A DNA stretch of 64,000 nt from Candidatus Magasanikbacteria bacterium RIFCSPHIGHO2_01_FULL_41_23. Lineage in GTDB: Bacteria > Patescibacteriota > Patescibacteriia > Magasanikbacterales > UBA922. Below are positions 7,300-42,954 of this stretch, in pieces. Every line of letters begins with the position of its first letter. The stretch's first letter is position 1. The notes under the pieces were generated by a model. It saw only the letters and a list, made by a program, of their open reading frames with translations. It was not told the DNA's origin and did not search any database. The stretch covers positions 5,401 through 69,400 of the forward strand of contig MFPT01000002.1 of NCBI GenBank assembly GCA_001782805.1, given 5' to 3'. The position numbers were made by a program, and so were the translations under genes.

Positions 7300-7512
7300 A
7301 TATTTACAATTGATACGAATGTGATATGGTAATAGTGAAAGATTTGTTGTCTTATCTGACTTGATTCATAATGCCGTCGGATTCGTCCTCGGCCGGGGTT
7401 CTTATAATTAAGTTCTCCGGGATCAAAGGGGGTCAGTGTAGCAACTCATCTCATAACCTCGGGCAGATCCAACACCCAGAAACCCTTTTCCGGCCTGCCC
7501 GAGGCCTCACAT
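7300..7512 (-). promoter_or_regulatory. GC-rich structured leader or intergenic RNA element between rsmI and metG
   Basis: 213 bp with markedly higher GC than other intergenic regions. It contains a 10-bp perfect inverted repeat (cctcgggcag...ctgcccgagg), a GGA-CGAA-UCC hairpin, and other helices. Confidence 0.25.
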
Positions 7513-8184
7513 CTATTTTGAAATGATAATTACAAATTCGCCTTTTTCCGGAATTTTTATGGTCATGATTTCGGTCATTGTTCCGCGATACACAGTTTCA
7601 AATTTTTTCGTTAATTCTCGACAAATACAGATTTTTCTTTCCGGATTTAATGATGCAGCCAATTCAGTCAGGCATTTTTGGATGCGGTGACTTGATTCAT
7701 AGAATACCACGGTCGTTTTAGTTTTGGCTAGCTCTTTAAAAAATGTCTGCCGGCCTTTTTTGTGCGGTGGAAATCCTAAAAAAAGAAAATTGTCCGTGGG
7801 AAATCCGGAAATGGATAACGCCGCGATTAAGGCCGATGATCCTGGAATTGGTATGACAGTAGTCTCTTTATTATTTTTAGTTATTTGTTCAATTAAATAA
7901 TTCCCCGGATCACAAATTCCCGGAGTGCCCGCGTCAGTTACCAACGCCAAATTTTTTCCCTTAGCCAATAATTCTTGAACTTCCTTAATTTTAGCCGAAT
8001 CACTGTATTCATGATAACTTAACGTCGGCGTTTTTATGGCATAATGATTCAGAAGATTTTTCGTCACGCGCGTATCTTCACATAAAATCAAATCAACCGT
8101 GCGCAGTGTTTCCAGCGCGCGCAACGTTATATCTTCCATATTGCCGATGGGAGTAGCGACGATGTATAGTTTTCCATTTTCCAT
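7513..8184 (-). CDS. rsmI: 16S rRNA (cytidine1402-2'-O)-methyltransferase RsmI
   Basis: The N-terminus LYIVATPIGNMEDITLRALETLRTVDLILCEDTR is the canonical RsmI/tetrapyrrole-methylase-fold signature. Confidence 0.9.
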   Translation of the reverse strand: MENGKLYIVATPIGNMEDITLRALETLRTVDLILCEDTRVTKNLLNHYAIKTPTLSYHEYSDSAKIKEVQELLAKGKNLALVTDAGTPGICDPGNYLIEQITKNNKETTVIPIPGSSALIAALSISGFPTDNFLFLGFPPHKKGRQTFFKELAKTKTTVVFYESSHRIQKCLTELAASLNPERKICICRELTKKFETVYRGTMTEIMTIKIPEKGEFVIIISK

Positions 8185-8259
8185 AGATAGATATTAACAG
8201 GAATGACAAGGAAAAACAAGGCTCTGTATCTCAATAAATCTATGGTATACTGTTACCCT

Positions 8260-10626
8260 ATGTCAAATATTAAAAATCCTTTAATTTGGTTACTGGCTAT
8301 CGGACTAATTTTAAGTCCGCGCTTAGTCAAAACTGCGGAATTCAACCCCAACAACATAATTTCTGATGCTGAGCTTCAGGATTATGATTCATTGGGACGC
8401 GCGGAAATTCGCAGTTTTTTGCGCAATAAAAACAGTGCTCTCACTGATCTTATTATTGAAGATTTTGCTGGTAAAAATCGCTATGCGAGTGAAATTATTT
8501 ATCAGGCCGCACAGAATTATCAAATTAATCCTAAATATTTGTTGGTAAAATTACAAAAAGAGCAAAGCTTAATTAACAGCTCCCAACCAACTCAACGACA
8601 ATTGGATTGGGCCACTGGTTATGGCGTTTGCGATAGTTGTGATACAACTGACCCGGCTCTGGAAAAAAATAAAGGTTTTGGCAAACAAGTGGATTATGCC
8701 GCGGGCATTATGCGCTGGTATTATGAAAATATCAATTCTACCGGCTGGATAAAAAAACCCAATGTAACCTATACGATTGACAGCACACCGATAACTCCGG
8801 TCAATGAGGCTACGGCTTTTTTGTATACCTACACTCCGCATCTTCAAGGTAATGCAAATTTCGCGCGCCTTTGGAGTAATTGGTTCAGTCAAGTTTATCC
8901 GGATGGAACACTGATAAAAAGCGAAGCAAGCTCGACAATTTTTGCGATTATAAATGGAGAAAAACGGCCAATTAAAAATATGAGTGTGTTGTCGTCACGC
9001 TTTAATCCTCAAATGATGATTGTTGTGCCGGCCGAAGAACTGACTCGCTACAAAACCGGCATGATGATTACATATAATAACTATTCATTATTAAAAATAA
9101 ATGAGACGTATTATCTGCTGGATTATGAAATTGCTCGGCCATTTGCCAGCGCGGAAATTTTTAGACAATTTGGCTATAATCCGGATGAAGTTTTTGAAGC
9201 AAGTGAAGCTGATCTGGCCGGATATACTATTGACGAACCAATTACGCTGGAAGATCTATACCCAACTGGGAGAATGGTTACTATTGGCGAAACAGTGTAT
9301 TACTTAAAAAATAACCGTTATTATTTTTTCCCGAGTTTGGAAATTCTGAAAGTCAGATTTCCTCGATTAAAACCACAGGCAATTTCTTCCGAAGAATTGG
9401 CAAAATTCGAATCGGGCGGTCCATTATTATTTCCTGACGCCACTTTGGTTGGATCCCAATTGACCAATAGAATCTATGTAATTGAAAAAGGTAAAAAGCG
9501 ACTGATTCCTTCGGAAAAAATATTCTTGAATCTAGGCTATAAATGGATCAATGTAATGTGGCTTGACGATTTGACTTTGGATCAACATCAAAATGGCGAA
9601 CCCCTATACACCGATGAATTATTAAATAGGAATGCAACGTCAACCGCAAAAATTGAATTGACTGCGGCCAAAAAAGCTGTAGCGCAAAAAATTATTCCTA
9701 AAAAAGTAATTGTGCCGGCAAAAAAAACTGTTGTCGCGGTTAAAAAACCAACAGCGACTTTTTTTTCGCCACCAACATCAACTGAACCAATGCGTTTTGT
9801 GGAAACAGGGATGATGTACACTCTGCGACCTGAATCAGCCAAAAATTCCGAACCGCATTTGACCACGATAATTGACAGTTACATTGTGGCAAGAATTAAT
9901 AATGGAGTTACAGAAATCGTTGCGGAAAAAAATGCTGATGTTCCTCGACCGTTGGCATCATTAACCAAAGTAGTCGCCGCCTATCAAATGGGACGCGATT
10001 CAATTGACACGGAAAAATCAGTCAAATATAGTCCCACAAAACACAGTGCTCCGTCCGGTTATTTGTACAAAATTTCTGCCGGAGACACTGTCAAAAATAA
10101 GGATCTCCTGAGCGCACTACTCATTTCTTCATTTAACACGCCGGCACTGATGCTGGTGGATTCACTCGGGAAAAATCAAGCGGAATTTGTGACGGAAATG
10201 AATAATCAAATAAAAGAATGGGGACTGACAAAATCGTATTTTTTTGATGCGCATGGATACGATGTCCGCAATCAAAGCACGGCACGGGAATATGTAACGA
10301 TATTTACCACTGCGCTTACTGATCCAATCCTCGAGTCATATTTGGGAGAAAAATCATACACTTACGAGGAATTAAGAAACGCGGGCGGAGCGTCAATTCA
10401 CCGTGACATTAACACCAATCGTTTATTTTTTAGCACAGACGCGCCATACACCGTATTGGCAAGCAAAACCGGTTATTTGTACGAAGCCGGATACAATATG
10501 GCCATGATTGTGGAACGAGTCGGTGATAGCCAAAAATTTGCTATCATTAGTCTGGGCAATCCGGATTACAATAAAAAATATTCAGAAACTGATCGCCTAA
10601 CGCGTTGGGCTCTTAAAAATTTTTAA
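8260..10626 (+). CDS. Secreted protein with a C-terminal D-alanyl-D-alanine carboxypeptidase (peptidase S11, PBP5-like) domain and a large N-terminal domain of unknown function
   Basis: Signal peptide MSNIKNPLIWLLAIGLILSPRLVKTA. The C-terminal region carries SxxK (ASLTK), an SxN-like motif, and KTG (ASKTGYLYEAGYN). The start was chosen at the Met preceding the signal peptide. Confidence 0.7.
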   Translation: MSNIKNPLIWLLAIGLILSPRLVKTAEFNPNNIISDAELQDYDSLGRAEIRSFLRNKNSALTDLIIEDFAGKNRYASEIIYQAAQNYQINPKYLLVKLQKEQSLINSSQPTQRQLDWATGYGVCDSCDTTDPALEKNKGFGKQVDYAAGIMRWYYENINSTGWIKKPNVTYTIDSTPITPVNEATAFLYTYTPHLQGNANFARLWSNWFSQVYPDGTLIKSEASSTIFAIINGEKRPIKNMSVLSSRFNPQMMIVVPAEELTRYKTGMMITYNNYSLLKINETYYLLDYEIARPFASAEIFRQFGYNPDEVFEASEADLAGYTIDEPITLEDLYPTGRMVTIGETVYYLKNNRYYFFPSLEILKVRFPRLKPQAISSEELAKFESGGPLLFPDATLVGSQLTNRIYVIEKGKKRLIPSEKIFLNLGYKWINVMWLDDLTLDQHQNGEPLYTDELLNRNATSTAKIELTAAKKAVAQKIIPKKVIVPAKKTVVAVKKPTATFFSPPTSTEPMRFVETGMMYTLRPESAKNSEPHLTTIIDSYIVARINNGVTEIVAEKNADVPRPLASLTKVVAAYQMGRDSIDTEKSVKYSPTKHSAPSGYLYKISAGDTVKNKDLLSALLISSFNTPALMLVDSLGKNQAEFVTEMNNQIKEWGLTKSYFFDAHGYDVRNQSTAREYVTIFTTALTDPILESYLGEKSYTYEELRNAGGASIHRDINTNRLFFSTDAPYTVLASKTGYLYEAGYNMAMIVERVGDSQKFAIISLGNPDYNKKYSETDRLTRWALKNF

Positions 10627-10627
10627 T

Positions 10628-11419
10628 ATGGCAATTGTTTTTTCGGCGATTGTGCCGCATCCGCCCGTGCTGTTACCGAATGCTCCGGAAGTCGCGCGCG
10701 ACCGTCTGGCATCTACTCGCGCGGCTCTGGCGATTTTGGAACAGGAATTATACGTCAGTCGTCCCAATCTCCTGATTATAATTTCACCGCATGCCGGGAC
10801 TTTCCTCAATGCCTTTACTGTTCATGGTCATCCAACACTGACTTCTTGTTTTGCGGAATTTGGTGATGTGGTAACCAAACGAACATGGCTTGGCGCGCCG
10901 GAAATGGCTGCAAAAATCAGTCATCGTCCGAATCAAAAAGTTATTCCCGTGCAAATGAGCGGCGAAGAGCGTTTGGATCATGGTGTTTCAATTCCTCTGC
11001 TATTTTTGACTGAACATTTGGCTAATCTCAAAATTTTACCATTGGGATTTAGTAATTTGCCACCCAAAAAACATTTTGAATTTGGTGAACTAATTAAGGA
11101 GGTACTAATGGAAGAATCTTTGCGCTGCGCCGTGGTTGCTTCGGGTGATTTGTCTCATACGCTAACGCCAAAATCACCTGGGAAATTCAATCCGCGGGGC
11201 AAGGAATTTGAACGAACTATTATTGAACTACTGTGTGCCAAAAATACGGTTGGGATTGCGAACATGGATCCGGCTTTGGTTTTGGCCGCGGATGAATGCG
11301 GGTATCGATCAATTCTGATTCTTTTGGGTATTTTGAAAAATTCCGACAGTGCGTTTCAGGTTCTGGCTCACGAAGCTCCTTTTGGCGTGGGTTATTTAAC
11401 CGGAATATTCCATCACTAA
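10628..11419 (+). CDS. LigB-family (class III extradiol dioxygenase, YgiD/Memo-like) protein
   Basis: IVPHPP..., ISPHAG, DHGVSIPLLFL and VASGDLSHTL align by eye with the YgiD/DODA motifs HGSP, SAHW, DHG and VASGNVVHNL. Confidence 0.5.
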   Translation: MAIVFSAIVPHPPVLLPNAPEVARDRLASTRAALAILEQELYVSRPNLLIIISPHAGTFLNAFTVHGHPTLTSCFAEFGDVVTKRTWLGAPEMAAKISHRPNQKVIPVQMSGEERLDHGVSIPLLFLTEHLANLKILPLGFSNLPPKKHFEFGELIKEVLMEESLRCAVVASGDLSHTLTPKSPGKFNPRGKEFERTIIELLCAKNTVGIANMDPALVLAADECGYRSILILLGILKNSDSAFQVLAHEAPFGVGYLTGIFHH

Positions 11420-11420
11420 T

Positions 11421-13127
11421 ATGATTGCGGACATTATTCCTTTTATCCGCTTGCCGCGTCAACTGGTTTTTTTTACGTATCATGTCCCTAACCATTTGGC
11501 TGTCCAAATAGCAATTGGGCAATATGTGAGTATTCCCTTTCGCTCGCAAAAAATTTTCGGATTGGTTGTAAATATTAATTCTCGCGAACAGAGCAGTCTG
11601 AAATCAGTGGATACAATAATTAATTCAATACCATTGGTCGGAGCTGACTATCTAACGCATTTAAAAAATTTGGCCTCTTTTTATGGAGTATCATTGTCAG
11701 TCGCCACCACATTGGCCTTGCCGCCGCTCCAATCACGAAAAATAATGGAAATGGAAATTGAACCATGGCAGGAAAAACATAGAGTTGCATCAGGGGAAAA
11801 ACCAATATATCATTGGTATAAAACGACAGCTGAACACAGTGCCGCATACGCGGAATATTCGAATGAAAAAGTAGTAATTATTGTTCCCGAAGTCGGACGC
11901 ATTCCGGAAGTGATGGCCGTTCTTTCTTCTGAACGTCAATCGCATGCATTAATTTGGTCAAGTGAGCTTAGTCAAAAAGAACAGCGCGAAATTTGGTTTA
12001 AAATTCGCAATCATGCGGCGCAAACTCTCGTGGCTACTCGCAGTGCGCTATGGCTTCCTCTTCAGCAGAGTTTTGATCGAATTATCGTGGATTACGAACA
12101 TTCGGAAAATCACAAGCAATGGGATCAAACTCCGCGCTATCACACCAAAGATTTGGCAAAATTATTCAGCCGAAATTTTGGCGTAGCTTACAGTGAAATG
12201 AGTTATTCGCCGAGCGTGACCAGTTTTTATTTTATTGGGAACGGCAATTATTCGTCAGTCAATTCAGCCGTACGGTATTTCGATTCACCGATTATCATTC
12301 AAGAAGCCTCAAATATCAAAAAACCGGAAAAATTATATACGTCGACAATGGCTCGTATTATGGAATCTCTGGTTCCGGGTACTGACGCGGTAATTCTTTA
12401 TAATTGCAAAGGCACAATATTCCCTGATACGGGCATTCCCGCAGTAGTGCGAGAAATAAAACAAAAAATTTTCGATCCGGCCGTTCATGTTATAACGGTA
12501 TCGGCCAAAACACCGCTCGAAAAAATCACTGAAAAAAATTCCACTGATACACGTTTGATTGTCAGTACGCATTCAATTCTCGGCATGCTGGATTGGAAAC
12601 GAGTTAGTATAATTATACTTCTTGATTATGATTCCCAATTACAGTTTGCCGAATACGCGGCCGAAGAAATGTTGTGGCATACTATTGCCGATATTTTATT
12701 TCATAAAAATTCCACGACGCCTTTTATTATTCAAACCAAACAATTGGAACATCGAATTTTTGCTTCGTTGAATCAGCCTAACGATTGGTATGCCGGCGAA
12801 ATTAAGGCGCGTGAATTATTGGACTATCCCCCGTTTTCTTATTTGCTACGTTATTTAATTTCCGGCAAAAGTGAAGATGAGTCCAAACAGCGAGCCAAAC
12901 AAACTCTGGCTTGTCTGGAACAACAATTGACGAAGACCAAAAAAAAGATTATAATCCAAGGCCAGATCCAGGCTGAACCACAGTGCGCTCGCGGATCATA
13001 TTGGGAAGTTATAATGCTAAAAATTTTGGAATCAGATATACTCTCAACAGTCCTCACCTTAAATTCTCTTATGCCGAATACGATTAAAATCGATCCACAT
13101 CCGATTTCACTTTTGAATCCACGCTAA
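11421..13127 (+). CDS. priA: Primosomal protein N' (PriA) homolog, degenerate (predicted ATPase-inactive)
   Basis: The N-terminus (IPFIRLPRQLVFFTYHVPNHL...VSIPFRSQKIFGLVV) and the segment RSALWLPLQQSFDRIIVDYEHSENHKQWDQTPRYHTKDLA are collinear with E. coli PriA ([38 protein letters not shown]). The Walker A motif GxGKT is replaced by YKTTAEHS, DEEH is replaced by DYEH, and there is no Cys4-Cys4 zinc region. The gene sits in the conserved priA-def-fmt arrangement. Confidence 0.7.
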   Translation: MIADIIPFIRLPRQLVFFTYHVPNHLAVQIAIGQYVSIPFRSQKIFGLVVNINSREQSSLKSVDTIINSIPLVGADYLTHLKNLASFYGVSLSVATTLALPPLQSRKIMEMEIEPWQEKHRVASGEKPIYHWYKTTAEHSAAYAEYSNEKVVIIVPEVGRIPEVMAVLSSERQSHALIWSSELSQKEQREIWFKIRNHAAQTLVATRSALWLPLQQSFDRIIVDYEHSENHKQWDQTPRYHTKDLAKLFSRNFGVAYSEMSYSPSVTSFYFIGNGNYSSVNSAVRYFDSPIIIQEASNIKKPEKLYTSTMARIMESLVPGTDAVILYNCKGTIFPDTGIPAVVREIKQKIFDPAVHVITVSAKTPLEKITEKNSTDTRLIVSTHSILGMLDWKRVSIIILLDYDSQLQFAEYAAEEMLWHTIADILFHKNSTTPFIIQTKQLEHRIFASLNQPNDWYAGEIKARELLDYPPFSYLLRYLISGKSEDESKQRAKQTLACLEQQLTKTKKKIIIQGQIQAEPQCARGSYWEVIMLKILESDILSTVLTLNSLMPNTIKIDPHPISLLNPR

Positions 13128-13128
13128 T

Positions 13129-13713
13129 ATGTCGGAACTTTCTTTGGTTATTCTGCCCGCGAAAACTTTGCGCGAACCTTCACGTGAGCTTATAAGAAAA
13201 GAAATCCTAGCGTCTGAAATGCAGCAATTTTTGTTTGCTATGGTGCCGACAATGTACCAAAATGATGGCATTGGCTTGGCCGCTCCGCAAGTGAATCGTA
13301 ATATCCGCGCTTGTATCATTGGAAAATCGGCGATTGATAGCCTAAAGCGTCCGGAAAAATCATCCGAAACGACAACCAAAAAAAAACAAAAAAAAGATTT
13401 AATTCTTATAAATCCGGTTTTTCAAAAAATAAGCAAAAAAATGACCGTGGATACCGAAGGTTGTTTATCAGTCCCCGGGTTTTATGGCACGGTCAAACGT
13501 TATCAGGAAATTTACGTGACTGCTTTGAATGAAAAAGCCGAGCCAATTGAATTCGCGGCCACTGGTTTTTTCGCGCGCGTTATCCAGCATGAAATTGATC
13601 ATTTGGCAGGCGGTTTATTTATTGATCGCGCCTATGATTTGTATCAAAACGAGCATGCCATAAAACTTGATCCTAAAATGGTTTTGCAAAATATAAAAGA
13701 AGCAAAAAATTGA
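13129..13713 (+). CDS. def: Peptide deformylase
   Basis: All three deformylase motifs are present: GIGLAAPQ, EGCLS and HEIDH. It carries a Lys-rich low-complexity insertion (SSETTTKKKQKKD). Confidence 0.9.
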   Translation: MSELSLVILPAKTLREPSRELIRKEILASEMQQFLFAMVPTMYQNDGIGLAAPQVNRNIRACIIGKSAIDSLKRPEKSSETTTKKKQKKDLILINPVFQKISKKMTVDTEGCLSVPGFYGTVKRYQEIYVTALNEKAEPIEFAATGFFARVIQHEIDHLAGGLFIDRAYDLYQNEHAIKLDPKMVLQNIKEAKN

Positions 13714-14651
13714 TTGCCATGAGTATTTCCACCACCTCAATTGTTTTTTTTGGAACGCAAGAATTTGCCAGAACCATTTTGGCCGGACTTTTGAGTAATA
13801 AAAAATTTTTAGTGCAAGCAGTAATTACTCAACCGGATCGGCCGGTTGGACGCAAACAAATAATGACGGCCTCACCGGTCAAAATTTTGGCGCTTGAATA
13901 CAACATCCCGGTATTCCAACCGGAGTCACTCAAGAATTTTGATTTTAAAAAAACGATTGACACTGTGCCTGACTTAAATGTAGTGGCTCAATATGGGTTA
14001 ATGATTCCGGAAGCAATCATTAACACGCCAAAATTTAAAACAATCAATGTCCATACTTCGCTTCTCCCTCAATATCGGGGCGCTTCTCCGATTCAATCCG
14101 TGCTTATTAACGGTGATACTGAAACAGGTATAACGATTATGCTCGTGGACGCGGGCATGGACACCGGGCCAATTTTGTCACAACAGGAAATTACGATTGA
14201 TCCGACAGACACCTATGAAACATTAGATAAAAAAATGGCAGTGGTTGGCAATGATTTATTGTTAATAACCATACCGAAATATTTGGACGGAGAGATCAAC
14301 CCACAGGCTCAGAATGATTCACTGGCCACGGTCTGTAAAAAACTGGATCGTGACACGGGCCGCGTTAATTGGGCCAATAGCGCGGCTGAAATTTACAATC
14401 TCTTTCGCGGTTTGTATCCGTGGCCCGGTATTTGGACAACCTGGAATAATCTGCGAGTAAAACTGTTGTCGGTTAAACCGAGCAATGAAGATCTTTCCCC
14501 CGGCCATTTAAAAATTAATAAAAAATCATTATTGGTCGGCTGCCAGCATTCATCGCTCGAAATTTTGGAAATTCAGATTGAAGGCAAAAACGCCCAATCA
14601 GCCGAATCATTTATTGCCGGCTATGCCCCCAACAATCAAAACTTTGTCTAG
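13710..14651 (+). CDS. fmt: Methionyl-tRNA formyltransferase
   Basis: N-terminal formyltransferase domain (IVFFGTQEFA), the SLLPQYRGASPIQ motif, and the C-terminal Fmt domain. Confidence 0.9.
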   Translation: MIAMSISTTSIVFFGTQEFARTILAGLLSNKKFLVQAVITQPDRPVGRKQIMTASPVKILALEYNIPVFQPESLKNFDFKKTIDTVPDLNVVAQYGLMIPEAIINTPKFKTINVHTSLLPQYRGASPIQSVLINGDTETGITIMLVDAGMDTGPILSQQEITIDPTDTYETLDKKMAVVGNDLLLITIPKYLDGEINPQAQNDSLATVCKKLDRDTGRVNWANSAAEIYNLFRGLYPWPGIWTTWNNLRVKLLSVKPSNEDLSPGHLKINKKSLLVGCQHSSLEILEIQIEGKNAQSAESFIAGYAPNNQNFV

Positions 14652-16053
14652 ACCGGTTTGGCTTCTGACGCTCGCGTACACTTTCATCCGTGTTTTGTCT
14701 TTTGCCACTTATACATACCCGGTGGCCAATGAAATTATCGCCGGTGTTTTGGTGGGCGTGTTCGTATATATTTGTTTTAAACATCCTAAACTCGGCTGGC
14801 TCATTCTGGTTAGCGAATTAGTACTTGACGGTGTCGGACATTTCTTTGAATTACAAAATCTATTATTGCGTACATGGTTTTTGGGAACATTTGGTTTGAT
14901 TTGGCTCGTGACAAAAATTAGACAAAAAGATTTTAAAATTGAATTACCCCGCCCGATTATTTTCAGTCTGATTGGATTGATGGTGGTTATTGGTTGGTCA
15001 ATCATCAGTGGATTTCTATCCCAACATACCACCATACCTATTCTTCAGGACGCCATTCTTTTTTGTTTTCTTTTTTTGTTGTTTCCGGCTTGGGAATTTG
15101 CGCGTGATACGGAAAAACTACTTATCCCTTCTCTAAAAGCCTGGATTATTGGTTCAACCGCTTTTTCCGCCATTACTTTTTTTATTTATTCCAGTGGCCT
15201 TGGCCATCTGCCCGACACGTATTATCATTGGTTCAGAAACATCGCGGCCGGAAAAATTACTGATCTAGGCAACCATTTTTTCCGCATTGTACTTCCTGAA
15301 CATCTTTTTATCGTGCCAATAATTTTGGTGATCGCGGCGTATCTTATTCAGCAACCCATCCCGACAGGTCGGGATAAAAAACTGTGGGGACTTTTTATTT
15401 GTTGTCTGTTCATTCTCACGCTCAATTTTTCCCGAATTTATTGGCTGGCACTCGCGGTGGGATTACTCGTTCTCGCGATTAAACATTCTCTTAAACATTG
15501 GCTTACAATTTTGGCCATTACTTTCACTTCTGTTGTAATTATTTTTTCCTCCACCCATTTCCTTGCCAGCCACGGTGAATCATTCGGTTTTGAGCTTTTG
15601 GGGCTAAAAATTAGCACCGCTACTGCGCCGCAAACCGACACAAGTGGCGCGATTCGCTTGGCAATGTTGCCCGATATTTTTCATCAATTAAAAACAAGCC
15701 CTTGGTTTGGTTCTGGCCTCGGCGCGACCGTTACCTATACTGACCCTACCACGCACCAGCCAGTGACGCGTACGCAATTTGACTGGGGATATTTTGAGAT
15801 GCTGGCGGAGTTGGGTGTTGTCGGCACAATTATCTTTTTTTGTTTTTTCTTCACCGTTTTATATTACCTTACCCGTTTTGCCTATTTCTCCACAAATATA
15901 GATCCAGTCCTAACTCGCGGACTTTTGGCCGGTGCTACAGCACTGTTGGTGATTAATATCACCACGCCAGCCTTGTTTCATGGTTTTGGGATGCTCTATA
16001 TCGTGGCGTTACTAGTTGTGATAAACCGAAACAGAAGCGGTGAAAAAAAATAA
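14623..16053 (+). CDS. Polytopic membrane protein, O-antigen ligase / Wzy-like
   Basis: At least 10 TM helices, with a large loop following FSRIYWLALAVGLLVLAI typical of the Wzy_C/O-antigen-ligase family. The start is uncertain: the ORF overlaps the fmt 3' end. Confidence 0.45.
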   Translation: MPPTIKTLSRPVWLLTLAYTFIRVLSFATYTYPVANEIIAGVLVGVFVYICFKHPKLGWLILVSELVLDGVGHFFELQNLLLRTWFLGTFGLIWLVTKIRQKDFKIELPRPIIFSLIGLMVVIGWSIISGFLSQHTTIPILQDAILFCFLFLLFPAWEFARDTEKLLIPSLKAWIIGSTAFSAITFFIYSSGLGHLPDTYYHWFRNIAAGKITDLGNHFFRIVLPEHLFIVPIILVIAAYLIQQPIPTGRDKKLWGLFICCLFILTLNFSRIYWLALAVGLLVLAIKHSLKHWLTILAITFTSVVIIFSSTHFLASHGESFGFELLGLKISTATAPQTDTSGAIRLAMLPDIFHQLKTSPWFGSGLGATVTYTDPTTHQPVTRTQFDWGYFEMLAELGVVGTIIFFCFFFTVLYYLTRFAYFSTNIDPVLTRGLLAGATALLVINITTPALFHGFGMLYIVALLVVINRNRSGEKK

Positions 16054-16068
16054 GCTACCGCTCTCCTC

Positions 16069-16767
16069 TTACCATTTTACTAAATTATGTTTCCTGCCTA
16101 TGATCTTTTTTGAATCTTCGTATTTTTTTACTTTTGAACGAATCAAAGGCAACCACTTCCACGGCGCTTGGTAACAAAATGACGGTAACCACGAGCTGAT
16201 GGTACCTTTTAGGTCAATCACCTTAAATAAATACTCCGGCACGTACACGCCGGTTTTATTTTTTTCTAGCATAGTGAGCCACAAATCCCAATCTTGAAAT
16301 CTTTTGAGTGACTCATCAAATCCAGAGAAATCGGCCCGGCGAATGAGTGTGGTAATGGTAACAAAATTATTTTTTTTCAAGGCATCCGCATCAAACTCCC
16401 GCGCGGGCATTTTTTTATTACCAAAATAAAAATCACTGTACACATAACTGGCTGACGGACTATTGTGCAAAGTCAATACCATTTTTTCGAGAGCATCGGA
16501 CTCAGCAATCGTGTCCGCATCCCAAAAAATGACGAACTCTCCTTTTGATTTGAAAAAACCAAAATTGCGAGCACTCGGCGCGCCTTTATTGTCTTGCCTA
16601 AATAATTGTACCCCAGGTTTATTTGTACTAATAGCCGGATTACTACCATCGTCAACAACAATGATTTCGGTATTTTTATAGGTTTGACTGAGAGCCGAAG
16701 CCAAAGAACGCTCAAAAATTTCTGGACGATTAAAAACCGGGATAATAATACTGACTAAAGGTTGCAT
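16069..16767 (-). CDS. Family 2 glycosyltransferase
   Basis: VSIIIPVFNRPEIFERSLASALSQTYKNTEIIVVDDGS is the GT-A/GT2 signature with a DxD motif. Confidence 0.8.
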   Translation of the reverse strand: MQPLVSIIIPVFNRPEIFERSLASALSQTYKNTEIIVVDDGSNPAISTNKPGVQLFRQDNKGAPSARNFGFFKSKGEFVIFWDADTIAESDALEKMVLTLHNSPSASYVYSDFYFGNKKMPAREFDADALKKNNFVTITTLIRRADFSGFDESLKRFQDWDLWLTMLEKNKTGVYVPEYLFKVIDLKGTISSWLPSFCYQAPWKWLPLIRSKVKKYEDSKKIIGRKHNLVKW

Positions 16768-18123: not shown

Positions 18124-18702
18124 TTATTGACGCAAGGAAACTTCATATACAACTTGCTCCAACTTCTGTCCGGCTTGCTTTGCCTGATCAAATTTCGTTC
18201 GCAAATAACTGGTCAAATCAAATTCAATCAATGATCCGATAATTTCTTCAGCGGCCGCGGCGCATTCAGCCACGGTTTTAAAATTTCGTTTTGTGGCCGC
18301 TTTAAGAGCATACCGATATAATTCACCTGGTACATCACATAAACCCGCTATAAAAGAGTTATCGCTCATTTTAATTTTACTGACAAAAATGATTTTTCGT
18401 TTCGTTACAAATGAAAAAAATAAACAGGCCTCCACGTATTCTTCAAGAGCGGCTTCATACGCGCCTTCAGACAAAAGCGCGGGATTTTTTTTATGTTTAA
18501 AATTAATTTCTCCGAATATCTTTTCTACAACCGCTAATTTTTCATTAGCCTCTTCCATGTTGTCCCGCTGTAAGGCAAAAATGCAACGCTTGGCACTATG
18601 CAGAGCGTCACCGGCCAACTTGATAACATCCCGTCTATCCTCGCTATAGACATTTAAATTATTTTTAATGTTAGTCATCTTAGACTGGTCAAGATAAGTC
18701 AT
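18124..18702 (-). CDS. Hypothetical protein (192 aa, predicted alpha-helical)
   Basis: Complete ORF overlapping the start of the P-type ATPase gene by 14 nt. No motif was recognised. Confidence 0.45.
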   Translation of the reverse strand: MTYLDQSKMTNIKNNLNVYSEDRRDVIKLAGDALHSAKRCIFALQRDNMEEANEKLAVVEKIFGEINFKHKKNPALLSEGAYEAALEEYVEACLFFSFVTKRKIIFVSKIKMSDNSFIAGLCDVPGELYRYALKAATKRNFKTVAECAAAAEEIIGSLIEFDLTSYLRTKFDQAKQAGQKLEQVVYEVSLRQ

Positions 18703-29660: not shown

Positions 29661-30185
29661 ATGTCAAATCCTGTCCCAGGATCAGAACAGCGATTGCCTG
29701 ATAAAAATCGAGAGCAAAATTCCCATCAGCCGGAAAACGAAATAAAACCCGCGGATTTTTTGGTGGAAAAAGAAACGAACGAAGAACTGCAAAAAAAAAT
29801 AAAACACGAGGAGGGATTTTTGGATGATACGATTGCCAAAATGCGTGGTCTTTTGCGTTCCACCAAGCAAAAACCCGTTATAATGCCCAAAGTTCGCGAT
29901 GATATAACCTTAAAAATTGAACATATAATGGAGGCGGATTTGGGTGATGCTTTTAATGTATTAACTCCTCTCCAGCAGCAAGAATTCAAATTAAAGGGCG
30001 AACAAACTGCCAGCTTGATTCGAGAATTATTGCAGCAAACGAAAATTAAGGTAAAAAAAATTTTTGCGCTTTTAGTGGCTTGGCTTAGATTTCTTCCCGG
30101 AATTGATCGCTTTTTTTTGGAACAGGAAGCAAAAATTAAAACCGATCAAATTATTGCGTTGTCGCGCCAAAATAAAAAACTGTAG
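29661..30185 (+). CDS. Hypothetical charged coiled-coil protein
   Basis: 174 aa, Lys/Glu-rich. It lies immediately upstream of, and overlaps, the VirD4-like ATPase gene. Confidence 0.4.
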   Translation: MSNPVPGSEQRLPDKNREQNSHQPENEIKPADFLVEKETNEELQKKIKHEEGFLDDTIAKMRGLLRSTKQKPVIMPKVRDDITLKIEHIMEADLGDAFNVLTPLQQQEFKLKGEQTASLIRELLQQTKIKVKKIFALLVAWLRFLPGIDRFFLEQEAKIKTDQIIALSRQNKKL

Positions 30186-30192
30186 CCGACTT

Positions 30193-32700
30193 ATGGAATC
30201 ATCCCAGATATTTTTGATTATTTTGCTTTATATAGGAGGAATCGGTGTTTTCACCGCTATTTTTTTTATAATTCGCTCATTTGTCCGTCCCATGTATCGC
30301 GCGCAAAAAGCATTTGACCGCGTCATTTTGCAAATCATGGTGCCCAAGGAAAAACGATCAGATAGCAGCGGACAAAGCAACGATGAACGCTTGGAGCAAA
30401 TCAAAGAAGAAATCGGCATCACGGAAACTTTATTTGCCACTTTGGCCGGACTTCGACCCGAGAGTGGTGTTGGTGCCTGGTTTCAAGGACGAAACGATCA
30501 TTTTGCTTTTGAAATGGTCGTACATGATAATTTAATTTATTTTTATTTGGCTGTTCCGCCAAAATATCAATCGTTTATTGAACAACAAATTACGGCGCAA
30601 TATCCGTACGCGCAAGTTGAACAGATTCCTGATTATAATATTTTTTTGCCCAAAAGTCAGATTGTGGGCGCGTATTTAGTGGCTAAAAAATCCAATATTC
30701 TGCCGTTTCGCACGTATAAAACCATGGATTCAGATCCTTTGGCCGCGATTTTAAATATCTTAGCAAAAATTCACGATCACAAAAGCACAGCGGCAATTCA
30801 ATATGTGATTCGGCCGGCCAAAAAAACTTGGCGCCGAAAAGGAATTCGGGTAGTTCGCGCCGTAAATAAAGGCGATTCATTTCACCACGCGCTCAAAAGA
30901 AATCACGTTTTAAAATTTTTCACCATGGTGGCTTCAACTTTGTCCGAACAATTTTTGGGAACAAAAGCTACAGAAAAAACACAGCATCAAATTTCCGCGA
31001 TGGAGCAAGAAATGCTCAAAGGAATTGAAGAAAAATTATCCAAAGGCGGACTGGAAGTGACATTGCGTGTGATTAGTGTGTCTGATGACAAAGAAATGGC
31101 CAAGCTTAATTTGGAAAATATTTTGAACGCGTTCAGTCAATATAATTTTTACCAATACGGCAATGAGTTTAGCGCGCTTTTGCCACGTCAACAGCCAACA
31201 TTAATTCGTGATTTTATTTATCGTTCATTTTTGGAACATCGCTCCTTTATTGTTAACACGCAAGAAATGACCGGATTTTGGCATTTGCCACTGCATTCCA
31301 CGGAAACACCAAATATCAAATGGCTGAGTGGCAGACGTGCGCCGCCGCCCAGTAATCTGCCGGAAACCGGTTTATTGCTGGGTCATGTGATGTATCGTGG
31401 CAGTGACACGCCGATTTATATGAAAGAACCTGATCGTCGACGGCATCTATATATTATTGGTAAATCCGGCGCGGGAAAATCGGTGTTGCTGGGAAATTTA
31501 ATCAGACAGGATATTTTGAATGGCAAAGGTGTTTGTGTGGTTGATCCGCATGGTGATTTGATTGAGGATGTTTTGTCGATTATTCCCAAAAATCGCGCGG
31601 ATGATGTGATAATTTTTGATCCTTCTGATGCGGAGCGGCCGGTGGGACTGAACATGTTGGAAGCGAAAACCGAAGATCAAAAAGATTTTGCCGTGCAGGA
31701 AATGATTTCTATTTTCTATAAATTGTTTCCGCCCGAAATGATTGGTCCAATGTTTGAGCACAATATGCGTAATGTGATGTTGACTTTAATGGGAGATATT
31801 ACTGATACGGGCACGATTATTGATATTCCTCGCATGTTCACGGATGATGCCTATGTTAAAAAATATCTTAAAAAAGTTAAGGATCCCGTGGTTCGAGCTT
31901 TTTGGGAAAAAGAAATGGCCAAAACCAGTGACTTTCATAAATCAGAAATGCTCGGCTATTTAATTTCCAAAGTCGGCCGATTTGTGGAAAACGAAATGAT
32001 GCGCAATATTATGGGCCAACAAAAGTCCGGCTTTGATTTTCGCGAAGTTATGGATCAACAAAAAATTCTCTTGGTCAATTTGGCCAAAGGTAAAACCGGT
32101 GAAGTAAACGCCAAATTATTGGGGCTGATTATTGTGGCCAAACTGCAGATGGCGGCCATGGGACGAGCGGATTTACCCGAACCGGAACGTTTGGATTTTT
32201 ATTTATACATTGATGAGTTTCAAAATTTTGTGACTGATTCAATTGCCACGATTTTGTCTGAAGCGCGTAAATATCGTTTGGATTTAACCATTGCGCATCA
32301 ATATATGGGCCAATTGGTGGATGACAAAGGTCGATCCGCCATTCGCGACGCGGTATTAGGTAATGCCGGCACGATTATGACGGGTCGAATTGGACCCGAT
32401 GACGCGGAGATTTTGGTTAAAGAATTTTCACCGATTTTTGGTGTTTATGATCTGCTCAATCCGCCGCCATTTTCGTATTACACCAAAATGTTAATTGACA
32501 ACGAAGCATCGAAGCCGTTTAATATGCTTGGCTATCCTCCGGTTCAGGGCAATCGCCAACTGGGAGAAGCCATTAAACAATTGGCGCGTCTCAAATATGG
32601 CCGAGATCGACGGATCGTGGAAGCGGAAATTATGGAGCGGACACAGTTGGGCGGCGGGGAAAATAAAGCCAAAACCGATACGATCGAAGCAACATTATAA
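30193..32700 (+). CDS. Membrane-anchored VirD4/TraG/TraD-like (type IV coupling protein family) AAA-like ATPase
   Basis: N-terminal TM helix. Walker A YIIGKSGAGKSVLLGN, VVDPHGDL, Walker B FYLYIDEFQNF, and the C-terminal TraG/VirD4-like region (ARKYRLDLTIAHQYMGQL). The N-terminal 350 aa are paralogous to ORF 49094-50539. Confidence 0.6.
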   Translation: MESSQIFLIILLYIGGIGVFTAIFFIIRSFVRPMYRAQKAFDRVILQIMVPKEKRSDSSGQSNDERLEQIKEEIGITETLFATLAGLRPESGVGAWFQGRNDHFAFEMVVHDNLIYFYLAVPPKYQSFIEQQITAQYPYAQVEQIPDYNIFLPKSQIVGAYLVAKKSNILPFRTYKTMDSDPLAAILNILAKIHDHKSTAAIQYVIRPAKKTWRRKGIRVVRAVNKGDSFHHALKRNHVLKFFTMVASTLSEQFLGTKATEKTQHQISAMEQEMLKGIEEKLSKGGLEVTLRVISVSDDKEMAKLNLENILNAFSQYNFYQYGNEFSALLPRQQPTLIRDFIYRSFLEHRSFIVNTQEMTGFWHLPLHSTETPNIKWLSGRRAPPPSNLPETGLLLGHVMYRGSDTPIYMKEPDRRRHLYIIGKSGAGKSVLLGNLIRQDILNGKGVCVVDPHGDLIEDVLSIIPKNRADDVIIFDPSDAERPVGLNMLEAKTEDQKDFAVQEMISIFYKLFPPEMIGPMFEHNMRNVMLTLMGDITDTGTIIDIPRMFTDDAYVKKYLKKVKDPVVRAFWEKEMAKTSDFHKSEMLGYLISKVGRFVENEMMRNIMGQQKSGFDFREVMDQQKILLVNLAKGKTGEVNAKLLGLIIVAKLQMAAMGRADLPEPERLDFYLYIDEFQNFVTDSIATILSEARKYRLDLTIAHQYMGQLVDDKGRSAIRDAVLGNAGTIMTGRIGPDDAEILVKEFSPIFGVYDLLNPPPFSYYTKMLIDNEASKPFNMLGYPPVQGNRQLGEAIKQLARLKYGRDRRIVEAEIMERTQLGGGENKAKTDTIEATL

Positions 32701-32718: not shown

Positions 32719-33288
32719 ATGGAAAACCAAAATTCCGACACAGTGCCAAAAAAATATCCTGATCCAGCCACTGTTCGCGCGCGATTACAAGTAATTAAAC
32801 GTGAAATTGAGGAATTGATAAAAACTTTTTCCGAAGCAAATCACTCTTCAATCTCAACACCTACTTCAACTTACCTGCCTTTAGCCCATGACGAAGAACT
32901 ATCTTTTTCAGAAATGAGTCGAACTTTGGAAGGCATATTTAATGGTGAAAAAATGATTGGCACGGACAATCAAGAATACCATATCCCGCCCAATTATGCC
33001 AGTAAATCAAAGCTGGTTACCGGCGACCGAATGAAATTAACCATTACTCCAACCGGTTCTTTTATCTACAAGCAAATTGGCCCGATTGAACGTCAGCGTA
33101 TTATTGGAACACTCGACTTTAATCCTGAGCACAATCGCTGGCTGGTTAAAGCGGAAAATGCGGAATATCGCGTATTAACTGCCTCAATCAGTTTTTATAA
33201 AGGCAAAATCGGCGATGGTGTGATTATTCTAGCTCCTCAAATCGGAATGAGCGAATGGGCCGCAGTTGATCATTTGATTGCCAAATAA
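32719..33288 (+). CDS. Hypothetical protein (189 aa)
   Basis: Complete ORF directly downstream of the ATPase, and likely co-transcribed with it. Confidence 0.45.
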   Translation: MENQNSDTVPKKYPDPATVRARLQVIKREIEELIKTFSEANHSSISTPTSTYLPLAHDEELSFSEMSRTLEGIFNGEKMIGTDNQEYHIPPNYASKSKLVTGDRMKLTITPTGSFIYKQIGPIERQRIIGTLDFNPEHNRWLVKAENAEYRVLTASISFYKGKIGDGVIILAPQIGMSEWAAVDHLIAK

Positions 33289-39480: not shown

Positions 39481-40617
39481 TCAAACAATAAAATCAATCA
39501 TATTTCCTCGAGTAATCGTCTCAAAACTCGCGCCCGGATAGGCCGTTGTCCAATCAGACGGCGGACGACCGGATTTATTTCCCCATTTGAATTCATAGCC
39601 AAACAATTTGCCATCTCGTTCTTCCACCCAATCAATTTCTTTTTGGTCATAAGTTCGCCAAAAATAATTATTGGCGTAGAGTCCGGAGTATGATTGTTTT
39701 TTTATCCTCTCCATGACTAGATAATTTTCCCAAAGCAGACCAACATCATCGCGCACAGACAGCGGATTAAAATTATTAATCAACGCGTTTCGTACACCCG
39801 TATCATAAAAATAATAACGCGACATTTTGGTTACTTCTTTGCGCAAATTCCGGCTAAAACCACGAACATTCACTATAACAAAAGCCTTCTCCAATAAATC
39901 GAGATACTTGGCAACAGTCTGTTTATTCATCCCCAAACTGGTTCCAATTTCAGACATAGATACCTCCTTGCCAATCTGATAGGCCAGCAATGTAAGAAGG
40001 TCGCGTATTTTTTTGGCGTTGCGAATATTTTCCAATTCTAAAATATCTTTAAATAAATAGGAATTGACCAATTCGTGCAGATATTCCTCCTGACGCGTAC
40101 GGTCATTAATACTAAATAATTCCGGATAACACCCAAAGACCAATAAATCCTCCAATGATTCCTGAAAGTATTCCAAACCTTTGGTTTCAATTATTTCCGC
40201 GGCCGAAATGGGGAATAAGTTAACGATTTTTTGGCGACCGGTCAATGGTTCCCCGACCTGACGCGCCAGGCTGAATGAAGCTGAACCGCTGGCGATAACT
40301 GACACATCTGGAAAATTATCAACAATAATTTTTAAACTCTGCCCAATTTGGGGAATTTTCTGCGCTTCATCAATGATAATGACTTTGCTATCACCAACAA
40401 ACCGCCTTAATGATTCTATATTCTGAACTGAAAGCGTGGCTTGAACTACGGTTGTTTCTCCGTTGACTATTTTAATGTGCTCTCTAGCCTCGTGATTCTG
40501 GATAAATTCATTAAGCAAAGTTGTCTTGCCCACGCGACGCGGTCCGTACAGCAAAATAACCTTTCCCGGCTGAAGTTTGTCGGCAAGCAATTTTTTGGCT
40601 AATCTATTGATTATCAT
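39481..40617 (-). CDS. AAA-family ATPase with a C-terminal DUF4143 domain
   Basis: Walker A LLYGPRRVGKTTLL, Walker B IIIDEAQ, and a C-terminal winged-helix/DUF4143-like region. Confidence 0.75.
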   Translation of the reverse strand: MIINRLAKKLLADKLQPGKVILLYGPRRVGKTTLLNEFIQNHEAREHIKIVNGETTVVQATLSVQNIESLRRFVGDSKVIIIDEAQKIPQIGQSLKIIVDNFPDVSVIASGSASFSLARQVGEPLTGRQKIVNLFPISAAEIIETKGLEYFQESLEDLLVFGCYPELFSINDRTRQEEYLHELVNSYLFKDILELENIRNAKKIRDLLTLLAYQIGKEVSMSEIGTSLGMNKQTVAKYLDLLEKAFVIVNVRGFSRNLRKEVTKMSRYYFYDTGVRNALINNFNPLSVRDDVGLLWENYLVMERIKKQSYSGLYANNYFWRTYDQKEIDWVEERDGKLFGYEFKWGNKSGRPPSDWTTAYPGASFETITRGNMIDFIV

Positions 40618-40838
40618 ACCGAATTTAGTTAAATAAAGACATTATAATGACCTTATTTTACTAAATTCAGATATTTATGTCAATAGCGCAACTTGGGTAG
40701 AGCTTTCGAGGTATACATACCCCCCACTTGCATTTGGCAAATAGTTTCTGTGTATAACTCCACGAATAACAAAATTTGATCCAATTCCTTAATATGGTAT
40801 AATCTCAATAATTAACTAAACCATGTTAAGCATTTCTT

Positions 40839-41792
40839 ATGAATTATTTACCATCAATCACAAAAATCCGTTTGGAAGAAAAATTGGCCAAACTGAATAA
40901 ACTTCGTCCTTTACCAAATTCTTCGGTACAAAAACTGCGAGAAAAATTTCAGATTGAAATGACTTACAATTCAAACGCGATTGAAGGCAACTCTTTAACT
41001 TTAAAGGAGACTTTTTTAGTTATTAACGAGGGTATTACGGTAAAAGGAAAACCTTTAAAAGATCATTTGGAGGCGAAAGATCATCATGCCGCGCTGGAAT
41101 ATCTTTATGACTTGATAGATAAAGACAAAAAGCACACTGTTTCTGAAATGCTCATAAAAAATTTGCACCAAATTATTTTACAGGAAACTGACAGAGAGTG
41201 GGCTGGTCGGTACCGAAACGCCAATGTAATTATTGGCGGAGCCAAGCATACTCCACCCGATGCTCTGCAAGTACCACAAAAAATGCGTGATTTAATTAGC
41301 TGGCTTATTTCACAAAAAAATAAAATAAATATTATTGAACTAGCTGCTTTACTACACCACAAACTAGTACACATTCATCCTTTTTTTGACGGCAATGGCA
41401 GAACTGCACGCTTGACCATGAACCTATTTCTTATGCAAGCCGGATATCCGTTGGTGGTAATTATGAAAACCGACCGAAAAAAATATTATGACGTGCTGGA
41501 TAAAGCGGATAGTGGCGTATATGAACCACTCCTAAAATTTATTGCTCGCTCAATAGAACGTTCGCTGGATATTTATCTAAAAACGTTAACTCCGGCAACC
41601 ACAAAACAGGAAAAATTTATTTCATTGACTGAAATATCCAAAATTACTCCGTTTTCCGCCAAATATCTAAACTTACTAGCAAGACAAGGAAAACTGGAAG
41701 CATACAAAGAAGGGAGGAATTGGTTAACTTCAAAAGAAGCGATTGAACGGTATTTAAAAAATAGGACAAGACAAAGAAAAATTATAAAATAA
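40839..41792 (+). CDS. Fic-family protein (AMPylase-type) with an N-terminal inhibitory motif
   Basis: Fic motif HPFFDGNGRTARL, and the inhibitory (S/T)xxxE(G/N) motif in TYNSNAIEGN. The C-terminal helical/HTH-like extension is a tentative inference, not supported by a recognised motif. Confidence 0.85.
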   Translation: MNYLPSITKIRLEEKLAKLNKLRPLPNSSVQKLREKFQIEMTYNSNAIEGNSLTLKETFLVINEGITVKGKPLKDHLEAKDHHAALEYLYDLIDKDKKHTVSEMLIKNLHQIILQETDREWAGRYRNANVIIGGAKHTPPDALQVPQKMRDLISWLISQKNKINIIELAALLHHKLVHIHPFFDGNGRTARLTMNLFLMQAGYPLVVIMKTDRKKYYDVLDKADSGVYEPLLKFIARSIERSLDIYLKTLTPATTKQEKFISLTEISKITPFSAKYLNLLARQGKLEAYKEGRNWLTSKEAIERYLKNRTRQRKIIK

Positions 41793-41980
41793 ATGATCCA
41801 CTTAACAGATAAAAAATGTCTTATTATTTATCTAACTTTGGTTTAATTTGCCATGTAATGCCTGTATTGATGCTCCTTGACTGTGAAGTTTTTCCGCTAA
41901 TTCCAATACCTGATTTACATCGAGATCATCACTCAACACTTTACCAATAGAATAAATTATTAAAGCCAACTATAAATATA

Positions 41981-42010
41981 ATTAACCACCGGAAACGACC
42001 GGTGGTTAAT
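41981..42010. terminator. Perfect palindromic hairpin (attaaccaccgg-aaacga-ccggtggttaat), candidate bidirectional terminator
   Basis: 12-bp stem between the convergent Fic gene and the minus-strand operon. The flanks are AT-rich, but there is no long T-run. Confidence 0.4.
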
Positions 42011-42045
42011 TATAGATTTATTTAGCTTAAGAAATTAGAAGAAAA

Positions 42046-42420
42046 TTAATCCTTATGAACCTCGTTCATCTTCAATTGTTTAGCAATTTCAATCCAGATA
42101 TCGGGTTTAATTATAGAGAGAATTTCACTTACTGAAAGAGGAGGTAATTTAGATTTTTCAAGCTTGACTTTTAACCTTCTCAGTTTATCGCTAAGTTTAG
42201 TTGGATCATCCAATGAATATAAAGAATACCGCTCATCTTCTATTGAACTGGATCTCAATAAATCATCTTCACTCTCTGAATAATCAATTGATCCTCCAAT
42301 CTGGAGGATAGCCCACATAACATCACCTGACGCAGCTTTTTCAATGATATTTTTTGCCTCGGCACACTGACCGTCCATGTGATGTCCGGTCGTACAAACT
42401 TTACAAAGTGATTCTGGCAT
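42046..42420 (-). CDS. Small Cys/His-rich (zinc-ribbon-like) protein, paralog of the next gene
   Basis: The N-terminus carries CKVCTTGHHMDGQC. The remainder is acidic and Ser-rich. Confidence 0.45.
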   Translation of the reverse strand: MPESLCKVCTTGHHMDGQCAEAKNIIEKAASGDVMWAILQIGGSIDYSESEDDLLRSSSIEDERYSLYSLDDPTKLSDKLRRLKVKLEKSKLPPLSVSEILSIIKPDIWIEIAKQLKMNEVHKD

Positions 42421-42453
42421 AAAATTAATTTTTACTTAGTTAATTATTAAAAT

Positions 42454-42924: not shown

Positions 42925-42954
42925 AAAATGAAATATAATAAGTAAATAAACCAA

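Follow-up and report, generated by a model that had tools for sequence, protein, structure and literature searches.

The 64-kb stretch of DNA analysed here (the window), which comes from one genome of the Magasanikbacteria in the Candidate Phyla Radiation (CPR; Patescibacteria), encodes a homolog of PriA whose ATPase motifs have been erased, while its fold and its predicted DNA-contacting elements are kept. The priA open reading frame (ORF) is located at 11421..13127 on the forward strand, as are all parts of this gene and its neighbours named below; it encodes 568 aa plus a stop, and was characterized from the ORF listing, from Pfam, NCBIfam and PDB searches, and from an AlphaFold model. We consider it probable (roughly 0.72) that this protein is the sole orthologous PriA of its genome, turned into an ATP-independent pseudohelicase that would act as a fork-binding adaptor recruiting DnaB. 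A preliminary description of the ORF had proposed a catalytically dead PriA with a structural or scaffolding role, and motif loss, kept fold, purifying selection, synteny and the retention of DNA motifs, all computational evidence, support it; both the scaffolding role and the loss of activity are predicted from sequence. Descent and fold place the protein in the PriA family; it lacks both the catalytic features and the Cys-rich region (CRR) that define a PriA helicase.

Homology to PriA is clear but weak at the sequence level, with about 20% identity to canonical PriA. The N-terminal 3′ DNA-binding domain (3′BD; aa 1-105, 11421..11735) matches PriA_3primeBD (PF17764) at residues 17-101 above the Pfam gathering cutoff (E 5.3e-13; 49.1 bits, cutoff 22.7); the PriA_C match is below its cutoff (E 0.0013; 19.9 bits, cutoff 26.9), and so are the Pfam matches to DEAD and Helicase_C. 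The NCBIfam priA equivalogs TIGR00595 and PRK05580 are found with E-values between 1e-45 and 1e-36, and both of their cutoffs are missed (126 bits vs 230, and 155 bits vs 813). PriA chains in PDB match the protein at about 1e-17 in a HMMER sequence search, the best-scoring stretch running from residue 149 on, downstream of the expected Walker A site. The collinearity with PriA claimed earlier is supported by the 3′BD match, by the fold matches described below, and by the HMMER alignment of the two strings quoted for it, RSALWLPL and IIVDYEHSENHKQWDQTPRYHTKDLA; both are present in the protein, and they align to trsalftpf and to a stretch ending in gwryhardla in the E. coli and Klebsiella proteins. 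The C-terminal domain (CTD; aa 453-568, 12777..13124) is aligned from end to end in a profile-profile comparison (hhalign), the sub-cutoff PriA_C match notwithstanding. In addition, the winged-helix (WH) domain is absent, a point that the preliminary description did not make: both MAFFT and hhalign place a gap of about 100 columns opposite it, and its position is taken by a 22-aa linker (11736..11801), the least conserved stretch of the protein. Some intact PriAs, such as P0020 and L043, have no WH domain either, and it cannot be taken as a strict hallmark of the family.

The register of the catalytic motifs was taken from three independent alignments: MAFFT with canonical PriAs, MAFFT L-INS-i with 40 orthologs, and hhalign of the clade profile with a profile of 14 PriAs whose catalytic motifs are intact (Prob 100, E 2.9e-79, 582 columns); the MAFFT alignments and hhalign agree on the register of the lost motifs. 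Opposite fLLxGxtgSGK, the window clade has an 11-column gap in the hhalign alignment, the glycine-rich loop is missing, and what remains of motif I (Walker A) is IYHWYKTTAEH (11805..11837). The pattern [AG]xxxxGK[ST], searched across the whole protein, was not found. Earlier, Walker A was described as replaced by YKTTAEHS; the loss stands, while the likeness of its Lys-Thr pair (K134-T135) to the canonical one does not, since the relatives carry H, T, S or N at the lysine position in the alignments, and the pair is a coincidence. Motif II is degenerate (IIVDYEH, 12081..12101), with D224-Y225-E226-H227 in the alignments, confirming the change from DEEH to DYEH that had been noted, in which the catalytic Glu of DExH has become Tyr. 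Similarly, motif III aligns as MSYSPS (12198..12215) with the canonical GSATPS, and the motif VI remnant HTIADILFHKNSTT (12678..12719) has lost the arginine fingers in the alignments, reading ADILFHKN where canonical PriA has QVAGRAGR. Mis-registration by eye of an intact P-loop or DExH was ruled out, for MAFFT and the profile-profile alignment both show no P-loop, DExH or motif VI in this protein. Genome-wide degeneration of P-loops was also ruled out, since the other P-loop ATPases of the window (DnaX, AAA_14 and HerA-like) keep their Walker A.

The AlphaFold2 model, for which 11 aligned clade sequences served as input, is confident (mean pLDDT 80.5, pTM 0.84) and retains the two-lobe PriA fold, with the RecA-like lobes and the S10-like CTD in PriA topology. 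The top nine Foldseek matches in PDB are all PriA (E 1.6e-31 to 1.6e-17), the best being 8fak_H (TM 0.74, E 1.6e-31), followed by 6dcr, 6dgd, 4nl4 and 4nl8; the next family in the list is Mfd, at 2e-10. P-loop geometry was judged from the secondary-structure boundaries of the model: only three residues (Y-K-T), none of them a glycine, separate beta-strand 129-132 from helix 136-144, and this predicted connection would be too short and too bulky for a phosphate-binding loop. These features bear on the alternative that the protein is a still-active helicase or ATPase with non-canonical nucleotide-binding residues, for which one may cite the weaker second nucleotide site proposed for E. coli PriA (PMC5778457) and the closeness of K134-T135 to the old P-loop position. 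We regard this alternative as highly improbable: K134 is not conserved, the strand-helix connection has only about three residues and no glycine, the protein has lost the catalytic Glu, motif III and the arginines of motif VI, and clade members differ without apparent constraint in motif II.

The loss of the motifs is lineage-wide, as a survey of orthologs revealed. A species scan with one genome per GTDB species gave 44 loci (L001-L044), one locus per assembly, nearly all of them from metagenome-assembled genomes (MAGs) of Candidatus Magasanikbacteria or Patescibacteria. The approximately 40 Magasanikbacteria-type species orthologs all lack the P-loop and the motif VI arginines; their motif II is D[YF]EH-like or worse, and their motif III is S[YF]SPS. 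We also searched 1.84 billion cluster representatives exhaustively with a profile and took the best 150 matches (all with E <= 1e-100), of which not one carries a P-loop; motif II in these representatives reads DYEH, DFEH, DDEG, DREH, IDEE, IEFEH, IAREE and others, and such free variation is the mark of an unconstrained site. The two outgroup loci L043 and L044, which lie in the same context, keep SSGKTE, DEEQ, TATPS and GRVNR together with the eight cysteines of the CRR; those of their relatives that have names belong to Moranbacteria or Parcubacteria, and each of them matches DEAD and Helicase_C. Since these same-context loci and relatives are intact, the loss of the motifs occurred within CPR, at or near the base of Magasanikbacteria. 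None of the 120 intact CPR PriAs among the matches listed carries a Magasanikbacteria name, which is a weak test. The intact CPR PriA (Moranbacteria/Parcubacteria type; L043, L044 and P0196-P0315), presumed to be the ancestral and active state, shares with the window protein the LigB-like/priA/def context, the HKQWDQxPR loop, a similar length and the lack of a WH domain, and differs from it in the four kept motifs and the 8-Cys CRR. A general trait of CPR or of reduced genomes was ruled out, as other CPR lineages, with PriAs of the Moranbacteria type, keep the helicase intact in the same context.

Two further observations concern the distribution of such proteins. First, several PriA homologs outside CPR also lack Walker A, namely P0043, P0044, P0045 (the latter two from Omnitrophica, annotated as “hypothetical”) and P0013; the first three also lack DExH and motif VI while keeping the 8-Cys CRR, and P0013 keeps DEEH. 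Their sequences suggest several further origins of PriA pseudohelicases beyond those documented in the literature. Second, many of the Magasanikbacteria-type MAGs (L001, L002, L007, L008, L010 and others) are titled “uncultured Gammaproteobacteria bacterium”, and a complete 1.23-Mb chromosome (OZ246405.1) is among the MAG records with Gammaproteobacteria titles; these titles are unreliable, because the priA locus and its synteny are CPR-like.

We also checked which residues are retained, taking as conserved the positions with at least 80% conservation across the clade. These positions coincide with the DNA-binding and structural residues of canonical PriA, and not with its nucleotide-binding ones. 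In the 3′BD, the close clade shows no variation at F18, Y20, G33, G47 and K61, while Y20, G33, V36, G47 and K61 are common to canonical PriA. Motif Ia (IIVPEVGR, 11877..11900) is retained, with P156 invariant in both the clade and canonical PriA, and so is motif Ib (VATRSALW, 12030..12053), in which T206 and R207 reach at least 91% conservation within the clade and also occur in the canonical GTRSALF. The aromatic-rich loop region (SENHKQWDQTPRYHTKD, 12102..12152) is strongly conserved (K232 and P238 99%, R239 95%, and also D244), and its HKQWDQxPR form with a one-residue insertion (the CPR type) is common to the intact PriAs of L043 and L044. T383 is kept in the motif V region (LIVSTHSI, 12555..12578), where the clade's conserved Gly is Ser382 in the window protein; Q438 and T439 of the IQT strand are conserved across the clade and match canonical PriA, as do (at 92-99% in the clade) R464, Y469, P470, P471, D558 and P561 of the CTD.

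The CRR (PF18319), reported missing in the preliminary description, is indeed absent from the window protein, which has no Pfam match to it, three scattered Cys and no CxxC pair. Compared with the closest relative, P0002, 54 residues have been excised in frame: ASQLFC...NIAVTG of P0002 is replaced by IFPD between conserved flanks, leaving the scar NCKGT-IFPD-TGIP (12402..12440), whose residues 331-336 have pLDDT values below 50 in the model. An assembly artefact or a frameshift was ruled out by the in-frame nature of the excision and by the identical ORF in at least 24 assemblies. Cys329 was considered as a relic of the CRR and rejected: it is paired with the first CRR cysteine in one MAFFT alignment, and with the R of NRRG in the others. 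Among 198 clade sequences, all eight cysteines are present in 165, a full-length segment with four or five cysteines in 16, a half-length segment in nine, and none in eight. Aligned, the CRR states form a graded series from eight cysteines through the outer four to none. There are two intermediate branches, one (L006, L009, L017, L022, L028 and L041) in which the inner four cysteines are substituted, and one (P0004, L001 and L002) with a deletion of the inner 25 residues; the outer C1xxC2...C7xxC8 pair survives in each, and L011 and L024 are further intermediate loci. These sequences imply that a single-zinc CRR could be stable. Nothing of the module is left in the window protein or the P0010 group, and the neighbour-joining tree, a distance tree that makes the count approximate, gives at least three events of complete loss. 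The three nearest relatives of the window protein, P0002 (58-60% identity), P0003 and P0048, all have eight cysteines, and since the excision relative to P0002 is clean, the window's loss of the CRR is independent and comparatively recent; the P0002 contig is collinear with the window through Wzy_C, GT2 and the Mur ligase. The E. coli CRR is implicated in the coupling of ATPase and helicase and in PriB binding (PMC5778457). This decay can reasonably be explained by relaxation of the CRR once the helicase was dead: unwinding would have been lost at the base of the clade, the constraint on the CRR would then have been relaxed, and stepwise decay would have followed in several branches, with the whole CRR removed by clean in-frame excision in the window lineage.

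The gene is under purifying selection comparable to that on its neighbours def and fmt, and is not decaying. The dN/dS of priA is 0.08-0.18 (ortholog pairs at 67-97% identity), compared with 0.08-0.13 for def and 0.10-0.27 for fmt in the same genome pairs, and 0.06 for the intact pair L043/L044. At least 24 contigs, each from a separate assembly, encode exactly this 568-aa protein, and its gene context never differs among them; full-length ORFs are intact across the clade at divergences down to about 30% identity; and in a relative-rate test against P0002 the window PriA is hardly accelerated. Decay as a pseudogene was ruled out by the dN/dS values and the relative-rate test. The gene could still be a relic on its way to loss (a functional pseudogene), or a redundant paralog beside an intact PriA elsewhere in the genome: the window copy ranks fifth of 193 for deviations, at 17 of 72 clade-conserved columns (eight of these being the lost cysteines), and the data are limited to a 64-kb window of the genome. 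Given a dN/dS equal to that of essential neighbours, the persistence of full-length ORFs in the clade, the identical protein in so many assemblies and the absence of marked acceleration, we consider this very unlikely; two weak tests, the single locus per assembly in the 44 species genomes and the names of the listed intact CPR PriAs, point the same way.

How such a protein could work is suggested by two known systems. PriA of Deinococcus radiodurans has no ATPase or helicase activity, and it binds ssDNA (Kd ∼215 nM), forks (Kd ∼108 nM) and DnaB (Lopper, Boone and Morrow, 2015; PMC4504706). Like the window protein, the Deinococcus-Thermus PriA is a PriA ortholog, with Walker A and B degenerate lineage-wide, that is kept under selection, and we adopt its functional model; it differs in having an independent origin, as the nearest relatives of the present clade are intact CPR PriAs. 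In Deinococcus-Thermus the motif I Lys has become Arg and the motifs match poorly, whereas in Magasanikbacteria the P-loop is deleted and motifs III and VI are lost; the window protein goes beyond the Deinococcus-Thermus state in lacking the CRR and the WH domain too. The second precedent is the E. coli priA300 mutant (K230R), which is dead for ATPase, helicase and translocase, and which supports PriA-PriB restart, primosome assembly and near-normal growth, with defects in the PriA-PriC pathway and in Mu transposition (PMC5778457). It shows the same separability of scaffolding from catalysis, but it is a single engineered substitution in a protein that keeps its CRR and its PriB and DnaT partners. 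Canonical PriA itself (E. coli and K. pneumoniae; 4nl4, 6dgd, 6dcr and 8fak) shares with the window protein the order of 3′BD, RecA-like lobes and CTD, as well as motifs Ia, Ib and V, the aromatic-rich loop and the YPPF segment of the CTD; it differs in its length (about 730 aa vs 568), and in having motifs I, II, III and VI, an 8-Cys two-zinc CRR and the WH domain. Crosslinks to the fork junction were found for the aromatic-rich loop of E. coli PriA; SSB binds PriA at a site between lobe 1, the 3′BD and the CTD, and the 3′ end of the leading strand is blocked by PriA independently of unwinding (PMC5778457).

The mechanism we propose rests mainly on the contrast between the DNA-contacting and structural elements, which are kept, and the nucleotide-contacting ones, which are erased. 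The window PriA keeps the scaffold (3′BD, two RecA-like lobes, CTD and DNA-contacting elements), and, as predicted from the motif loss, would neither bind nor hydrolyze ATP, and hence would neither translocate nor unwind DNA; by analogy, binding of forks and ssDNA and interaction with DnaB may be retained. Abandoned forks and D-loops would be recognized through the 3′BD and the aromatic-rich loop; PriA would sit on the 3′ end of the nascent leading strand, and would then serve as a landing pad to which DnaB is recruited, either directly or via SSB or a loader, so that the replisome is reloaded.

The same retained surfaces could instead belong to a neofunctionalised, PriA-derived DNA-binding protein that does not reload replisomes, and that would cap or protect fork 3′ ends or have a nucleoid or regulatory role, with restart left to other factors or not taking place at all. 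Such a history would be in keeping with the low identity to canonical PriA and with equivalog cutoffs that are all missed widely; with the loss of the WH domain, the CRR and all catalytic motifs; with the known ability of PriA to block a 3′ end (PMC5778457); and with the gene content of the window, in whose annotation none of the PriA partners DnaB, SSB, DciA, PriB, DnaT and DnaD, nor a second PriA, was found within the 64 kb (DnaG, DnaX and LigA are encoded there). The absence of partners from 64 kb is, however, uninformative about the rest of the genome, where they may be encoded; the gene sits at the very place in the chromosome where sister CPR lineages encode their intact PriA; the conserved residues are those of the DNA-binding and CTD surfaces of canonical PriA; and the Deinococcus precedent keeps both fork and DnaB binding (PMC4504706). 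Neofunctionalisation thus seems unlikely to us, and we favour the ATP-independent adaptor that reloads the replisome through DnaB.

Several points weigh against this adaptor role. For the clade as a whole, DNA binding, interaction with DnaB or SSB, and the lack of ATPase activity are each predicted from sequence comparisons. A second, intact PriA or a compensating helicase may be encoded in the genome beyond the 64 kb. The window protein carries substitutions at the otherwise conserved Gly205, Gly336 and Gly382, and these may reduce its competence in DNA binding. Finally, the CRR probably keeps some ATP-independent role in most members; because 165 of the 198 clade sequences keep all eight cysteines, the argument that the CRR serves unwinding only is weakened.

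The surroundings of priA are conserved. The gene starts 1 nt past the stop of the upstream gene and ends 1 nt ahead of def (peptide deformylase; 13129..13713; PF01327, E 9.5e-43, and synteny), which is followed by fmt (methionyl-tRNA formyltransferase; 13710..14651; PF00551 and PF02911), overlapping the end of def. Linkage of priA, def and fmt is found in many bacteria. With def and fmt directly after priA and their synteny conserved, the retention of priA in this operon holds as first described; an operon is suggested by the 1-nt gaps and the gene overlaps, and a promoter and terminator scan of 7400-16300 gave counts equal to the shuffled expectation. Directly upstream of priA lies a LigB/Memo-like gene (10628..11419; PF02900, E 8e-30), and this AmmeMemoRadiSam-B-like gene is tightly linked with priA-def-fmt: it is directly upstream of priA in about 42 of the 44 loci, including the CPR outgroups with intact PriA, and the order LigB-like/priA/def/fmt is kept in about 40 of the 44, being common to the intact-motif loci L043 and L044. 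The mechanical ORF starts of fmt (TTG 13710) and of the Wzy_C gene (TTG 14578) probably lie ahead of the real ones; on identical contigs, gene callers give 310 aa for fmt (ATG 13719), which is likely its true start, and 476 aa for the Wzy_C gene.

The window also contains other features of note. Upstream of the LigB-like gene, an 807-aa protein (8203-10626, forward strand) matches S11 D-Ala-D-Ala carboxypeptidase over its C-terminal ∼250 residues, and its N-terminal ∼550 residues match no known family. A 192-aa protein at 18124-18702 (reverse strand) matches the Translin family (PF01997, E 1e-17), which is mostly eukaryotic and archaeal and is unusual in a bacterial genome. At 30103-32700 (forward strand) there is an 865-aa HerA/TrwB-like P-loop ATPase that resembles a type IV secretion coupling protein; the ORFs adjoining it (29661-30185 and 32719-33288) have no Pfam match. 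The region 39481-43872, of lower GC (0.36 vs ∼0.40), contains an AAA_14/DUF4143 ATPase, a Fic-domain protein and a 2H-SAK phosphoesterase, and may be a mobile or defence islet. In addition, the SecD encoded at 51707-53752 (reverse strand) has a PPIC-type peptidyl-prolyl isomerase domain inserted (residues ∼253-364) before the P1 head domain, a translocon-chaperone fusion.

A 2017 review names Deinococcus as the only exception to the conservation of the PriA helicase (PMC5778457). We found no earlier description of the present case in the literature on PriA in Patescibacteria/CPR or in later comparative surveys, and the one paper that mentions both PriA and CPR concerns another phylum, UBP6. 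The preliminary description had called the protein unusual, and this is true of it as an extreme CPR variant; the Deinococcus-Thermus pseudohelicase (PMC4504706) and priA300 (PMC5778457) precede it, so the present clade is an independent and more extreme pseudohelicase, and no new principle. The practical impact is modest, since the organisms are uncultured and the principle of a helicase-independent PriA is already established. It is a second, independent and much larger pseudohelicase lineage, with at least 150 clusters at 50% identity spanning a whole CPR class-level group, in which the ATPase has been erased rather than mutated and the zinc-binding CRR is caught at several stages of loss. 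Helicase loss is not a generic outcome of genome reduction, as sister CPR lineages keep it. The clade provides natural deletion variants with which fork recognition and the adaptor function of PriA can be studied apart from the motor, and in the Magasanikbacteria series one can ask what the CRR is for when unwinding and PriB are both missing. Somewhat short of an even chance, and put forward tentatively, is a further proposal: that a minimal PriA, made up of the 3′BD, two dead RecA lobes and the CTD and devoid of an ATP site, a zinc-finger module and a WH domain, is sufficient to reload the replisome through direct contact with DnaB, SSB or a DciA-type loader, the CRR serving mainly for unwinding. 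If true, the stepwise and repeated decay of the CRR after the death of the helicase would be an evolutionary demonstration of its job, which would be that of a strand-separation pin and of ATPase coupling rather than primosome assembly, and the irreducible core of PriA function would be defined for bacteria without PriB and DnaT.

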